Source: a virus
Taxonomy: Duplodnaviria; Caudoviricetes
IMG/VR virus record: IMGVR_UViG_3300009136_000004
Span: 1-63,806 of that record
Strand: one strand, 5' to 3'
DNA length: 63,806 bases
Shown here piece after piece: positions 45,893 through 49,268 of the stretch (positions are counted from its first letter, which is position 1; every line of letters begins with the position of its first letter). Both the position numbers and the translations under genes were made by a program. Below the pieces are notes generated by a model. The model saw only the letters and a program-made list of their open reading frames with translations, did no database searches and was not told where the DNA came from.

Positions 45893-46204
45893 TTATTGGT
45901 CGACATATGCCGACGTTGCTTCGCCTTCAGTCTCGGTCACTTCCACTAGCGTCAGCAGTGCATAGGCGACAAGATCTTCCAGCGAGTCCTTCCCTTCTTC
46001 AAGCTCAATCGTTGACTTGAATAGGTCGTACTGGAACTGCGACGCGCCATGTTCAACGCGACTATACTTGCGATGCAGATTGAAGAACGCACTGAAGCCT
46101 CCGTGGTCTTTCCAGCTTGACCCGTATGCCTCGTCCTTCTTTATGATCGTCTGCACGATCTCGTCAGCTATCTGCTGAAGCCGTTCCTTCTCATGTGGTT
46201 GCAC
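45893..46204 (-). CDS. Nmad1/DUF1599-like nucleotide-modification-associated protein
   Basis: KKDEAYGSSW, KYSR, DSLEDLVAYALL. Confidence 0.7.
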   Translation of the reverse strand: MQPHEKERLQQIADEIVQTIIKKDEAYGSSWKDHGGFSAFFNLHRKYSRVEHGASQFQYDLFKSTIELEEGKDSLEDLVAYALLTLVEVTETEGEATSAYVDQ

Positions 46205-47198
46205 GATGCTTCCTCCTCATCATCCACTGCGTACAGGCAAGAGCCCAGTCCGGCGACGCGATGTTCTTGCACAGATGCAGCGCAGTCTCAATGTCGCCTC
46301 GTTTGTAACATCTCCACGCATCCCTCATCGGGTACGCTGTCCGGCCGAAGAATAGATCCTGATACATTATAGGGTCATCCCAGTCGTCCTTGAAGAACCG
46401 CTCCAGGTCAGCATCCCATGCGTCGGTCGTTCCGTTGACAATGGCAGCGGAGGCAATACGGCTCGGCGTGTATCCGTGACCAGCATAATAATCCTGCTCG
46501 CCGTATGCTGCTCCCATGTTCAACTTCTTCCAGGTCGGGTTCTCAAGATAGTAGTGCCACGAATCACTGATGTGATAGTAGAGGCCGATGTCGTACCCGC
46601 TCTTCCGTGCCATGTACTCCTGGAGAACACTGAAGTGAACAGCGTTCGCACCGTAGCATCCCCAGATGATGTCGTTGCTGCGGCAACAGACCGTCATGTT
46701 CAACTTCCCATTGCGCACCTTGAAGTAGACGTGCGTATTGCATGGGATGTCACGTCGATCAGCGCCGAGGTCAGCAGCCGGGTTCCACATTGATATCACT
46801 GCCCGACGCGTGTCAGGCTTCCGTCGCAGAAGGTTCGCTGCGGTTTCAATCTGGTCAACGCCACTGCGCCACCTGAACCCGTATGCTCCATGGAACTTAC
46901 CGTCATCTTCTGCGAACTGTCCGATGTTCTTACTGAATTGGCTGATCCATGCTGAGTCGTCGCGTCCTGCCAACATCCACAAGGCTTCCATCAAGTGGAA
47001 GAACGGGTTCGCATCGCGCACGTCGCAGAAGAGTACTCTCCTCCAGGGTTTGCGGTAGATGGTAGTCACCGGCTCATCGTACTCCCGCGTGACCTTCCCT
47101 TCTCGTGGCGCTATCTCATGCCAGTTGTCATCGTGCAGCATGATGTGAGCCGCCTTTCGAAAGGCTGAGTTCACGTTGTCTGCGTCTATTACTATCAT
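46191..47198 (-). CDS. Thymidylate synthase-family dUMP hydroxymethylase
   Basis: RDANPFFH..EALWMLAG, GAYG.RW, TRRAV, catalytic DIPCN, RSNDIIWG.YGAN (Asn indicates dUMP specificity). Confidence 0.85.
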   Translation of the reverse strand: MIVIDADNVNSAFRKAAHIMLHDDNWHEIAPREGKVTREYDEPVTTIYRKPWRRVLFCDVRDANPFFHLMEALWMLAGRDDSAWISQFSKNIGQFAEDDGKFHGAYGFRWRSGVDQIETAANLLRRKPDTRRAVISMWNPAADLGADRRDIPCNTHVYFKVRNGKLNMTVCCRSNDIIWGCYGANAVHFSVLQEYMARKSGYDIGLYYHISDSWHYYLENPTWKKLNMGAAYGEQDYYAGHGYTPSRIASAAIVNGTTDAWDADLERFFKDDWDDPIMYQDLFFGRTAYPMRDAWRCYKRGDIETALHLCKNIASPDWALACTQWMMRRKHRATT

Positions 47199-48061
47199 TG
47201 CTGTCTCCTATACTTTGCTCGAGGTCTGCCCTCATTCTTATGTACGCGCATCCACTTATCGAACTCACACATTGAATGCTCAACTTCACGCATCTCCAGG
47301 GGAGGGACGTGTTTGCCCAGATACTTCCTGGACGTCTTCAGTATCTCTTGCATGAACTCAACGTATGGTCCTGTCCCTTTGAACGCATTCTTCTTCGGAG
47401 CGTTGTTGATGATGCGGTTGATGCCGCGTCTTGCTCCAGGTCCAAGGTTCGCCCACTTCTTCTTGTCGGGTGCTTTATCCAGCATCCCCTTCTGATACCT
47501 CATGTCACAGATAACTTCGTACGCAGTGAACGGACCTTGCATTGGATACGCCGATAGGATCTTCGTGCATCCTTCCATCGTGCCATCCTTCTGCATCGCT
47601 TCCCAGATACGCTTCCGGCCGCGCCAGTGAACAGCCATCGCGTCAGACATCAAGTCTATCTTGGGTACGGACTGACCAGCGTTCGTGATGATGTATGCGC
47701 CAGTGAAGATCTTAGTACCCTTGTCCGCGTTCCGATGCAAGATGCGCTTCATCTTCTTGGCGACGTGATGCGTATCCTTCCCACGAGTCAGCAGGTCATA
47801 CGTCCCCTGGAGATTGAACGCACGATAGAGGATCATGTGATAGAGCTTATCGTACGGCATCACGTCCAACAAGTCAATCCGTTCATGGAACCGAATGGTC
47901 TCAGCGTCAAGCTCGCGGAATACGTTGGTGAACTTGTACTCCTGCATGATCTTGTCTTTGGTCCACGGCCACTCCTCTTCAGCTTCTTTGTTCAGGTAGA
48001 TCTGATGCCGTTCATTGATCCACCAATAGAACTTCCTCAGCCTGTCTGCTGCCGATCTCAT
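47195..48061 (-). CDS. aGPT-Pplase1-clade DNA thymine hypermodification enzyme
   Basis: WINERH.IY..K, PWT.D.I...YKFTNVFRELD, FTGAY, G.FTAYE...D, GPGARRG, EHSMCEFDKW. Confidence 0.85.
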   Translation of the reverse strand: MRSAADRLRKFYWWINERHQIYLNKEAEEEWPWTKDKIMQEYKFTNVFRELDAETIRFHERIDLLDVMPYDKLYHMILYRAFNLQGTYDLLTRGKDTHHVAKKMKRILHRNADKGTKIFTGAYIITNAGQSVPKIDLMSDAMAVHWRGRKRIWEAMQKDGTMEGCTKILSAYPMQGPFTAYEVICDMRYQKGMLDKAPDKKKWANLGPGARRGINRIINNAPKKNAFKGTGPYVEFMQEILKTSRKYLGKHVPPLEMREVEHSMCEFDKWMRVHKNEGRPRAKYRRQQ

Positions 48062-48609
48062 AACTTGTTCTCCCAGAGCAGATGCGTCAACTCCTTGACC
48101 GCGTTCTTGTGGTCCAGTACGACGGGGTTCGCCTTGTCGTGTACCTGACGCTGAAGGAACCGCAGATTGGCGAAGAATAGCTTCTCTGTGTTCTCAGGGT
48201 TGAACGGCTTCGTGTTCCCTGCTTGCTTCCTGCGCTTCCGCACTCTGGCGAGGCACGTTGTCAACGGTGTATCCAGCGTCGCGAATGCGAACGCCTGATT
48301 CATACGACGGTGGTGCGCTAGGTTCTTCGCGTACCCGTTGCCGATGGTCAGTCCCTCATAGATCACGTGACCCTGCTTGCAGAACTTGGTGATACGTCGA
48401 CGCGTCTCGTCTTGCGTCTTGATCGTATCGCATCCACCGCAGACGTTGTCGTAACGACCGATGACGTAGATGGGGTCAGCCCAATGAATCAAGACTGCCA
48501 GCACCTTCCCACTTCGGTCGGTCACATCCTCATGCGTATACTTCTCCATGAGCTCGCGGATGATAGTGGTCTTTCCGGCTCCACTCGTTCCTCTGATGTT
48601 TACAATCAT
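48058..48609 (-). CDS. P-loop kinase (5-hmU DNA kinase-like)
   Basis: NIRGTSGAGKTT, IGRY...CGGCD.I, YEG, C..RV..RR; adjacent to aGPT-Pplase1. Confidence 0.8.
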   Translation of the reverse strand: MIVNIRGTSGAGKTTIIRELMEKYTHEDVTDRSGKVLAVLIHWADPIYVIGRYDNVCGGCDTIKTQDETRRRITKFCKQGHVIYEGLTIGNGYAKNLAHHRRMNQAFAFATLDTPLTTCLARVRKRRKQAGNTKPFNPENTEKLFFANLRFLQRQVHDKANPVVLDHKNAVKELTHLLWENKL

Positions 48610-49268
48610 ACTCTTTTGATCCCCTCTTTTAGATCTCTGATGAGTCCTTTGTATCCACTCCGATGGAGCGGTCTGGTTGCTACGAAGACAGGCTTCCTGA
48701 ACAGATGCACGTTGTCAAACAGAAACGTCGCAGGTCTGCGTCCACCTTTCTCGTACTTGATATCCCGATGCCACTTGGGAGCGTTGTACTTCTTGTCATG
48801 TTCCATTCGGGTGTGACCGTATGGAGTTCGATAGTGCTTCGGGTTGTACTTCGTCTTGTCACTGAGATTGTGCAGCGGCGTATAGATATCGCCGAACGGG
48901 TTATCAACCGCAAGCTTCGCCTCCCATGCCTCCGGGTGATTGTCCATGAGGTAGTTGCCGAGGTCGTAGTTACTGTCGAAGACGTAAGCGATCCGCGCCA
49001 GATACAGCAGATAGCTGTCTCCGCATCCTACCTTCGGCGTGAATCCAGCGAGCCACGTATGAAGCCAGTCGACGTTCGCTGCTCTCATAAAGTGCTTGCA
49101 CGTTGTCAAGGTAAGAAGTCCGCCTTGCCAGTTCGGTCCGGAGCGCGTCTGGTTGAAGATGCCATCCTCCAGGTAGATCTGATGCTGCGGATATGTGCGA
49201 ACGATGCCGCCTTCAGGTGCGTTGATGGTTCTCCTCTGACGCCATCCCTTGAATGATTGATGGTCCAT
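48606..49268 (-). CDS. Nmad2-like nucleotide-modification-associated protein
   Basis: GPNWQGGLLTLTTCKH.MR, W.AG, GDIY motifs. Confidence 0.6.
   Translation of the reverse strand: MDHQSFKGWRQRRTINAPEGGIVRTYPQHQIYLEDGIFNQTRSGPNWQGGLLTLTTCKHFMRAANVDWLHTWLAGFTPKVGCGDSYLLYLARIAYVFDSNYDLGNYLMDNHPEAWEAKLAVDNPFGDIYTPLHNLSDKTKYNPKHYRTPYGHTRMEHDKKYNAPKWHRDIKYEKGGRRPATFLFDNVHLFRKPVFVATRPLHRSGYKGLIRDLKEGIKRV

Follow-up and report, generated by a model that had tools for sequence, protein, structure and literature searches.

To our knowledge, the thymidine hypermodifications solved so far (5-NedU, 5-NeOmdU, 5-AcNmdU, putT and dapT, with gluT by inference) all use the amino-acid:DNA transferase ADDT (aGPT-Pplase2), members of which include M6 gp51, ViI gp247, PaMx11 gp46, PhiW-14 gp109 and the Pplase2 of SH-Ab 15599. 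These enzymes attack C6 of 5-phosphomethyl-dU (5-PmdU) with a Cys thiolate, the phosphate is expelled, and the exocyclic methylene takes up a nucleophile (PMC8989533, PMC11472151, PMC13458397).

The M6/YuA-type 5-NedU cluster of Pseudomonas phage M6, of which Sphaerotilus phage SN1 carries an annotated copy, deploys a hydroxymethylase, a P-loop 5-hmdU DNA kinase and an aGPT-Pplase1 protein beside a family-A polymerase module, and the same three genes were found in the same order, and in the same setting, in the window, i.e. the whole 63,806-nucleotide stretch of DNA analysed (IMG/VR record IMGVR_UViG_3300009136_000004). The chemistry up to 5-PmdU is expected to be alike in both (PMC8989533). 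The M6/SN1 cluster further encodes ADDT, Nmad5, an HD phosphohydrolase and two tailoring enzymes, a PLP decarboxylase and a radical-SAM isomerase; the window carries neither ADDT nor the radical-SAM enzyme nor Nmad5. The reference criteria for the phage thymidine hypermodification pathway were those of Lee et al. (2018, 2021).

Composition and distribution of the module

The window corresponds to a complete phage genome (CheckV 100%) of marine origin. Near-identical sequence, defined by a match to half or more of the sampled words, was recorded in seven runs from four studies of marine and marine-sediment metagenomes, and within its habitat the phage is no rarity. As an indication of selection, across four runs from four studies the module contained no indels, and among the 40 of 44 differences listed, 28 of the 39 genic ones were synonymous. 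A first-pass annotation had claimed five overlapping genes, and these were confirmed as five translationally coupled ORFs spanning 45893-49268 on the minus strand, with overlaps of 4, 4, 4 and 14 nt in module order and a Shine-Dalgarno-like purine run upstream of each. Four of the five family labels that it had proposed stood up to profile searches (the kinase, Pplase1, the hydroxymethylase and, at family level only, Nmad2), and the fifth, Nmad1-like, did not.

The P-loop subunit of the 5-hmdU DNA kinase (183 aa; 48058-48609, minus strand) matched PF18748 (HMUDK_HMUD1) with an E value of 4e-8, its score of 33.4 bits exceeding the cut-off of 27. Its Walker A motif occupies residues 7-14, of which G7, T8, G10, G12 and K13 were invariant in seven sequences, and it shares 28% identity (E 3e-8) with the P-loop kinase of the M6-like phage SN1. 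The thymidylate-synthase-fold pyrimidine hydroxymethylase (335 aa; 46191-47198, minus strand) matched PF00303 (E 2.3e-22) and phrog_5131 (E 1.7e-99), and exhibited 39% full-length identity to the enzymes of both SN1 and phage PhiJL001. Its best solved relative was the CMP 5-hydroxymethylase 5b6d (E 8e-23), compared with 1e-15 for classical thymidylate synthase. Direct reading of the sequence located an Asn in the R-S-N-D ... G-A-N-A segment, a position that we take to set uracil specificity. Homology and context together point to a putative dUMP hydroxymethylase rather than a methylase.

The third member of the shared set, the helix-hairpin-helix-type protein aGPT-Pplase1 (288 aa; 47195-48061, minus strand), aligned almost throughout its length with PF18723 (HMUDK_hel, formerly aGPT-Pplase1; E 1.1e-48, 166.5 bits), residues 8-276 covering profile positions 4-277 of 281. 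The closest deposited Pplase1 was that of PhiJL001 at 35% identity, and identity to the SN1 protein was 30%.

The last of the five genes, after the hydroxymethylase, codes for a small all-alpha protein of 103 aa (45893-46204, minus strand) belonging to no named family, a point of difference from the M6/SN1 cluster. Every profile test of the proposed Nmad1 (PF07659, DUF1599) assignment failed and it was not confirmed: the protein had no Pfam hit, PF07659 was not found in the genome, and only one of the 26 rows of its family alignment (A2) matched that model, at E 0.16. It did match phrog_1485 (E 3.8e-9), a family with no assigned function, and none of its 34 homologs carried a Pfam domain. The protein has a conserved core, followed by a variable linker and then a C-terminal tail that is again conserved and reads G-E-P-G-x-x-Y-V-D-Q-D in relatives; invariant D73, D77 and E88 and basic R45, K46 and R49 are present. 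The AF2 model (pLDDT 78) consisted of four long helices and one short, for which Foldseek returned the MazG-related 2yxh (TMq 0.53, E 3.2), DCTPP1 and Mycobacterium tuberculosis MazG as top but non-significant hits; the protein is most likely an accessory, which may be a MazG-like nucleotide-pool pyrophosphatase or a docking subunit. Among related phage loci it was found in L001/L091 only, L092 being uninformative because it ends inside the hydroxymethylase gene. A possible sixth gene of 83 aa (45655-45906, minus strand) shares 14 nt with the 103-aa gene, and L001 encodes a homolog (48% identical across 48 residues, E 1.9e-5); the 83-aa product gave no Pfam hit, and no Shine-Dalgarno-like run or clear ribosome-binding site was found upstream of this gene.

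The first-pass annotation had reported no clade-2 transferase and no radical-SAM enzyme, and six-frame searches of the whole genome confirmed this, neither ADDT (PF18724) nor Radical_SAM (PF04055) giving a match at E≤10; nor did Nmad5 at the same threshold. In the positive control, SN1, ADDT and Nmad5 were readily detected (E 1.9e-48 and 2.4e-34). The further claim that PLP and acetyltransferase enzymes were missing held among the 39 of 78 ORFs (at least 60 aa) scanned with Pfam, which contained no PLP, FAD or acetyltransferase family, the other 39 lying almost entirely in the plus-strand virion block (7888-44010).

Comparison with other uncultured phages indicated that the arrangement is not peculiar to one genome. 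The order Nmad2-kinase-Pplase1-hydroxymethylase was retained in seven of the eight distinct loci with downstream DNA (the window, L001/L091, L002/L095, L003, L092, L094 and L096), the Nmad2 proteins sharing 38-73% identity; in the exception, L093, Nmad2 is followed by a different P-loop protein, with no Pplase1 in the remaining 340 bases. ADDT was absent from all four Nmad2 genomes searched in their entirety (G000, G001 and G003, each complete, and G002, 87%). Taken together, the sequence evidence supports the module as a genuine thymidine-hypermodification core with no clade-2 transferase and, among the ORFs scanned, no known tailoring enzyme.

The Nmad2-family protein and its cellular relatives

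The first gene of the module codes for a protein of 220 aa (48606-49268, minus strand), described at first pass as Nmad2-like and Cys-containing. The direct match to PF18753 (E 0.13, 12.2 bits) fell below the gathering cut-off of 26.1, and a six-frame search of the window genome with that model gave no match. Homologs of the protein supplied the connection: alignment A1 unites 22 of them with the window protein, and of its 23 rows 15 matched PF18753 at E≤1 (best 3.8e-8), the domain was carried by homologs P0021 (E 1e-21) and P0022 (E 1e-18), and 25 of the 30 Atlas hits fell in Nmad2-carrying clusters. The A1 profile recovered 565 representative clusters at E≤1e-3. These intermediates, the Cys motif and the tree support a divergent Nmad2, at family level only. 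The Cys claim was upheld, Cys57, which with Lys58 and His59 lies within a T-C-K-H motif, being invariant in 50 of 50 diverse Nmad2 sequences, as were P45, N46, G49, R62, G126, D127, W166 and D169; His152 is conserved alongside Asp127 and Asp169.

The phage proteins formed a single clade within a Cys-bearing clade of cellular paralogs (SH-like support 99), and share with cellular Nmad2 (PF18753) the residues Q40, P45, N46, G49, C57, K58, H59, K118, D127, H152 and D169. Cellular Nmad2 often occurs as tandem A+B pairs (41 of 80 loci, with 35 single copies, one triple and three with no called ORF), and the Cys is replaced by Ile in all 40 B copies. Phages, by way of contrast, keep A alone, with Arg substituted for the cellular Gly42 and His154, each substitution being present in 8 of 8 phage and 0 of 70 cellular Cys-type proteins. 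The earlier association of Nmad2 with bacterial modification loci was correct only in that the family is mostly cellular: the loci were not recognisable as modification loci, and homologs of the kinase, Pplase1 and hydroxymethylase were found within 6 kb of cellular Nmad2 in none of the 80.

That the phage gene might be unrelated to DNA modification, a counter-defence or defence-derived gene merely heading a replication-module operon, is very improbable: the surroundings of cellular pairs are indeed variable (PRiA4_ORF3 in seven loci, McrBC in two) and NMAD domains are counted among predicted, unvalidated defence domains (PMC13092281), but the adjacency and order described above persist despite divergence to 38% identity and changing flanking genes, and the presence of Nmad2 is complementary to that of ADDT.

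Proposed displacement of phosphate from 5-PmdU

By homology to characterised enzymes, the thymidylate-synthase-fold enzyme would make 5-hydroxymethyl-dUMP, which after conversion to the triphosphate would be incorporated by the phage family-A polymerase, and the P-loop kinase would then convert 5-hmdU in DNA to 5-PmdU. Genomic context suggests that the phosphate would be displaced by way of a C6 thiolate and an exocyclic methylene without an amino-acid:DNA transferase, and precedent for thiolate chemistry on 5-PmdU is available (PMC8989533, PMC11472151). Because the cysteine-bearing Nmad2 sits in the place of the transferase, a derivative of thymine that arises by an undescribed route is probably present in the DNA, and the final base is probably not among the described ADDT products. 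Our preferred reading, which we rate at about even odds, is an ADDT-independent branch of phage thymidine hypermodification defined by an Nmad2-family enzyme. Against it count the sub-threshold PF18753 score of the window protein, its non-significant fold matches, the deviant locus L093 and the 80 cellular loci in which Nmad2 showed no link to thymine-modification genes.

In one version of this scheme Nmad2 would itself attack 5-PmdU through Cys57 assisted by His59, His152, Asp127 and Asp169, with the clade-specific Arg42 and Arg154 holding the phosphate; in another it would capture and tailor an intermediate produced by Pplase1, which retains a Cys265 of catalytic type. We advance only tentatively, and as possible rather than probable, the strongest form of the former: that Nmad2 represents a previously unrecognised class of enzymes that modify DNA bases, its fold unrelated to that of ADDT, in which Cys57 displaces the 5-PmdU phosphate and installs a thymine substituent unseen in DNA. 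The window phage and the one most closely related to it also encode a PAPS-motif sulfotransferase-like protein (191-781), by which that base, or 5-hmdU, might be modified further.

Nmad2 is not the only possible source of the missing transferase activity, however, and Pplase1 rivals it as the phosphate-displacing enzyme because it keeps a Cys aligned with the catalytic Cys of ADDT, a feature overlooked at first pass. In this alternative Pplase1 would be a group-transfer or reductive enzyme, its Cys265 attacking C6 of 5-PmdU as in ADDT and a nucleophile or hydride resolving the methylene, leaving Nmad2 to downstream tailoring, nucleophile supply or the reading of modified bases. The Cys265-Glu266-x-Asp268-Lys269 motif was invariant in alignments of six and of seven sequences, and hhalign set Cys265 on Cys247 of the SN1 ADDT, Cys247 being the catalytic nucleophile in PaMx11 gp46 (PMC11472151); that match was nevertheless short, at 32 columns with a probability of 3%, and L002 and L003 have Gln in place of the Glu that lies four residues ahead of the Cys. 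The ADDT model also weakly matched the C-terminal part of the PhiJL001 Pplase1 (E 7.8e-4). Many phages without ADDT, PhiJL001 among them, pair Pplase1 with a hydroxymethylase (PMC9599517), and the conversion of 5-PmdU to thymidine by ADDT plus borohydride (PMC8989533) makes a reductive paralog chemically plausible. Yet gp55, the Pplase1 of M6, was dispensable for the transfer step in the lysate reconstitution (PMC8989533), no activity was found reported for any Pplase1 in the literature, and Pfam now treats the family as a helical domain of the kinase. We consider a catalytic Pplase1 of this kind rather unlikely.

Also unlikely is a pathway without a new adduct, ending at 5-hmdU or 5-PmdU or partly reverting to T, with Nmad2 as a non-catalytic or protective accessory that replaces Nmad5, for instance a PUA-like reader shielding or sensing the modified base. 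Nmad5 was present in SN1 and PhiJL001 but in none of the four Nmad2 phage genomes, and since the two are thus complementary across genomes Nmad2 may replace accessory Nmad5 rather than the transferase, although they lack detectable homology (hhalign probability 0.2%). The failure to detect the transferase family in the genome is consistent with such an ending. Furthermore, the AF2 model of Nmad2 (pLDDT 93.9), which gave no Foldseek match at E≤0.001 against PDB or BFVD, had as its weak top hits only reader-type PUA-like folds (ASCH, EVE/THYN1 and YTH; E 0.03-0.5, TM 0.24-0.41). Against this, a catalytic role is suggested by the invariance of Cys, His and Asp residues and by the close coupling of the gene to that of the kinase, with an overlap of 4 nt; the degenerate form of Nmad2 is the cellular Cys-less B type, to which the phage clade does not belong, and it would be odd for a phage to keep a DNA kinase whose product went unused.

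Overall, the first-pass proposal of an undescribed T modification in which Nmad2 takes part follows reasonably, and in testable form, from the linkage in seven of eight loci, the absence of ADDT from four of four genomes and the finding of no relative of the Nmad2-like protein among 50,697 deposited phage records. A conserved kinase cluster without ADDT implies either a second phosphate-displacing enzyme for 5-PmdU or a different end product, and in both cases the chemistry known from phage DNA and from restriction evasion would be extended. Because the cluster is compact, amounting to four or five expressible genes whose DNA substrate, containing 5-hmdU, can be made by PCR, the long-open questions of Pplase1 and Nmad2 function are directly testable. 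No biochemical data were found in the literature for any Nmad2 protein, and catalysis by the phage enzyme, if true, would provide the first biochemical function for a family that numbers 565 sequence clusters or more, as well as a way into the cellular A/B pairs.

Comparison with described phage systems

The Alphaproteobacteria phage PhiJL001 (Keylargovirus) resembles the window in possessing a kinase (gp18), Pplase1 (gp19) and a hydroxymethylase (gp24) with no ADDT above threshold; it lacks Nmad2, however, and has Nmad5 as gp23 and a glucosyltransferase as gp22. Set against the ADDT systems, the window has no member of that family, and the candidates for its function are the paralogous Pplase1, which has no known activity, and Nmad2, which is of unrelated fold. 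With respect to SN1 the substitution is positional as well, the slot upstream of the kinase being filled there by ADDT-PLP-rSAM and in the window by Nmad2.

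Gene order and enzyme assignments

The window is an entire virus record (63,806 bases), rated 100% complete by CheckV, and the five ORFs of the module were found at exactly the positions assigned to them in the first-pass annotation (45893-49268, minus strand). They close a long array of replication genes that includes a family-A polymerase (52524-54401), a PD-(D/E)XK nuclease and an SNF2 helicase. Because successive ORFs overlap by 4, 4, 4 and 14 nt, each is preceded by a Shine-Dalgarno-like run, and promoter- or terminator-like sites across 45400-50300 were no more numerous than in shuffled sequence, the module reads as a single translationally coupled unit. 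Directly upstream it adjoins the gene for a Lys-rich 261-aa protein (49337-50122, minus strand), for which no above-threshold Pfam family was found, only a weak match to HTH_23 (E 0.095). This protein is conserved in the related loci L001, L092 and L093, its C-terminal 59 residues being present in L002 also.

By homology, the window encodes a hydroxymethylase, a 5-hmdU DNA kinase and a Pplase1. The 183-aa protein, previously labelled a P-loop kinase, bears that label out with a match to PF18748 (5-hmdU DNA kinase) exceeding the Pfam cut-off and a Walker A motif, and on both counts its phrog_800 label of 'terminase small subunit' was rejected as a mislabel. The same label is attached to features underlying the Pplase1 match in deposited records (H27, H40 and H65), and on kinase-family and Pplase1-region features alike is probably a propagated misannotation. 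The 288-aa protein matched PF18723 (HMUDK_hel in current Pfam, formerly aGPT-Pplase1) from end to end, in keeping with its earlier designation; a 2013 paper from the Aravind group is said to have named aGPT-Pplase and probably also the Nmad domains.

The 335-aa protein has a thymidylate-synthase fold, its closest solved relative being the CMP 5-hydroxymethylase 5b6d (E 8e-23, as against 1e-15 for thymidylate synthase), and shares 39% full-length identity with the enzymes of PhiJL001 and of SN1, an M6-like phage. Given a hydroxymethylase as its nearest solved relative and a 5-hmdU kinase encoded alongside, the protein was not taken for a classical thymidylate synthase. The earlier label of dUMP hydroxymethylase, which the identity to the SN1 and PhiJL001 enzymes also favours, was accepted as the probable assignment.

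By way of contrast, the label 'Nmad1-like' given to the remaining 103-aa protein (45893-46204, minus strand) failed every test and was abandoned. The protein is conserved and predicted to be helical, with four long helices and one short; its best fold matches were MazG-type pyrophosphatases, none of them significant. In an alignment of 26 family members its relatives carry a linker of variable length, minimal in the window protein, and then a conserved tail (G-E-P-G-x-x-Y-V-D-Q-D) that recalls a docking peptide. When compared by sequence with solved structures, the profile of this protein returned chance-level matches only, and no useful match was obtained for the kinase, Pplase1 or the Nmad2 profile.

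Six-frame searches of the complete genome recovered no ADDT (PF18724, the amino-acid:DNA transferase), Radical_SAM or Nmad5, while the same searches strongly recovered both ADDT and Nmad5 from SN1, which served as positive control. Of the 78 ORFs, 39 (nearly all of those lying outside the virion block) were scanned with Pfam, and none of these matched a family of PLP enzymes, FAD lyases or acetyltransferases. The absences claimed at first pass stand genome-wide for the transferase and radical-SAM enzymes, and for PLP enzymes and acetyltransferases within the 39 ORFs scanned.

Family placement of the Nmad2 protein

Taken by itself, the 220-aa protein described as Nmad2-like gave only a sub-threshold match to PF18753 (E 0.13). 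It was nevertheless placed in the Nmad2 family because its homologs grade into PF18753-carrying proteins, 15 of the 23 rows in an alignment of the protein with 22 homologs matched PF18753, and a language-model search placed 25 of its 30 neighbours in Nmad2-carrying clusters. The AF2 model was confident (pLDDT 93.9), its closest structural neighbours being the PUA-like ASCH, EVE/THYN1 and YTH domains, all below significance. Ten longer Nmad2 proteins yielded no informative fusion when scanned: Nmad2 occurred alone in seven and with DUF6508 in one, and two carried no family.

Searched with the Nmad2 profile, 1.84 billion representatives gave 565 clusters at E<=1e-3. Eighty cellular loci, from Planctomycetota, Chloroflexota, Verrucomicrobiota and some archaea, comprised 41 with a tandem pair of Nmad2 genes, 35 with a single copy, one with three and three with no called ORF. 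The commonest neighbour other than a second Nmad2 was a PRiA4_ORF3-like protein (seven loci), with McrBC (two loci), NUDIX and metallophosphoesterase proteins adjacent in a few; within 6 kb, blastp found a kinase, Pplase1 or hydroxymethylase in none of the 80. The cellular pair has the look of a two-subunit cassette, possibly linked to defence islands.

In a quick FastTree phylogeny of 118 sequences, some on long branches, first copies (A) separated from second copies (B) as two deep clades, and all eight phage sequences formed a single clade (SH-like support 99) nested within A. Cys57 is retained in 70/70 A-type and 8/8 phage proteins, which also have in common Lys58, His59, Lys118, Asp127, His152 and Asp169; in the B type, Ile replaces the Cys in 40/40 and Asn replaces His152. 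Specific to the phage clade are Arg42 (Gly in 70/70 A-type proteins) and Arg154 (His in 69/70), a pair of substitutions that may represent a phosphate-binding adaptation.

Recurrence of the gene block and its surroundings

Searches of viral, genome and metagenome contigs for related loci demonstrated that the order Nmad2, kinase, Pplase1, hydroxymethylase recurs at six other distinct loci (L001/L091, L092, L094, L002/L095, L003 and L096), with Nmad2 identities ranging from 73% down to 38% and different genes on either side. The arrangement is thus conserved. The exception is L093 (1030-1934), a short contig (1.9 kb). Here the Nmad2 gene (48% identity) overlaps by 4 nt a downstream gene for another Walker-A protein, one that shows no relationship to the kinase of the window (phmmer E 0.18), and a hydrophobic ORF occupies the place of Pplase1. 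ADDT and Nmad5 were absent from all four Nmad2 phage genomes that could be searched whole, and tblastn detected no relative of the window Nmad2 at E<=1e-3 among 50,697 deposited phage records.

In two loci of more distant Nmad2 phages, L002 (11324-12215) and L003 (4847-5973), the hydroxymethylase is followed not by the 103-aa protein but by a YfbR-like HD 5'-deoxynucleotidase and a DUF3310 protein. In the window, a weak HAD-like protein is encoded instead, at a distance from the module (1310-2044); these would be different solutions to nucleotide-pool trimming.

Near-identical sequence (at least half of sampled words) was present in seven runs from four studies of marine and marine-sediment metagenomes, with no RNA run among those listed. 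Across four runs, compared as contigs, no indel was seen in the module. Of 44 differences, the 40 itemised comprised 39 that were genic, 28 of them synonymous, each site being judged separately and some of the non-synonymous differences coming from short, low-depth contigs, perhaps of relatives.

Elsewhere in the window, a 196-aa protein (191-781, minus strand) carries both motifs of the PAPS-binding type of sulfotransferase, P-R-S-G-S-T-S and I-R-D-P-I-K-R-L-A-S-A-Y, which are invariant in 17 homologs. Of the two motifs, the second was aligned by the profile with heparan sulfate 2-O-sulfotransferase, at E 0.74 only, and 7 of the protein's 30 Atlas neighbours were clusters with Sulfotransfer_2 in 20% of members. 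The gene is present in one related phage genome (G001) and absent from two others (G002, G003) and from PhiJL001, and therefore lies outside the conserved module; its product could decorate DNA in this lineage.

Candidate chemistry and relation to known pathways

On the reading we prefer, the phage DNA would carry 5-phosphomethyl-dU (5-PmdU) as an intermediate, to be resolved without an ADDT, and there is an even chance that Nmad2, acting alone or after Pplase1, is the enzyme that defines the product. Prediction of a complex of Nmad2 with the kinase and Pplase1 scored 0.00 ('no answer') and weighs neither way.

A rather improbable alternative is that Pplase1 itself performs the displacement and Nmad2 is secondary. 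The motif Cys-Glu-x-Asp-Lys is invariant in alignments of six and of seven Pplase1 sequences, and in a short, weak hhalign alignment its Cys falls on Cys247 of the SN1 ADDT, as is backed by a sub-threshold match of the ADDT model to the corresponding part of the PhiJL001 Pplase1. Cys247 is described as the C6-attacking nucleophile in the account of PaMx11 gp46 (PMC11472151), and the same Cys was shown to be essential in M6 gp51 and ViI gp247 (PMC8989533). Pplase1 thus appears to be no innocent bystander; however, in the M6 lysate experiments of PMC8989533 glycine transfer proceeded without Pplase1 (gp55), and literature searches found no activity on record for the protein.

Of similarly low probability is the view that no new adduct is made and Nmad2 stands in for Nmad5 as an accessory; that gene is missing from the window, and hhalign detected no homology between the two families. 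A function of Nmad2 unrelated to modification, set against the recurrent block order, takes the small probability that is left.

Literature searches, confined to main texts, found no paper describing an Nmad2-kinase cluster, although clusters of the Nmad2 type may already appear in the supplementary figures of PMC8989533 (cluster diversity) and PMC9599517 (Pplase1 trees). Pelagiphages having Pplase1 and a hydroxymethylase without an ADDT are already described in PMC9599517. Relative to the pathways of M6, ViI and PaMx11, the present module works like their front half and is of the same broad kind, but a characterised pathway has an ADDT followed by tailoring steps, and at both points the module falls outside that class. 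The cultured phage PhiJL001 (AY576273.1, 11832-16120) likewise has no above-threshold ADDT, and with its kinase (gp18), Pplase1 (gp19), glucosyltransferase (gp22), Nmad5 (gp23) and hydroxymethylase (gp24) provides another kinase-containing cluster of the ADDT-less type.
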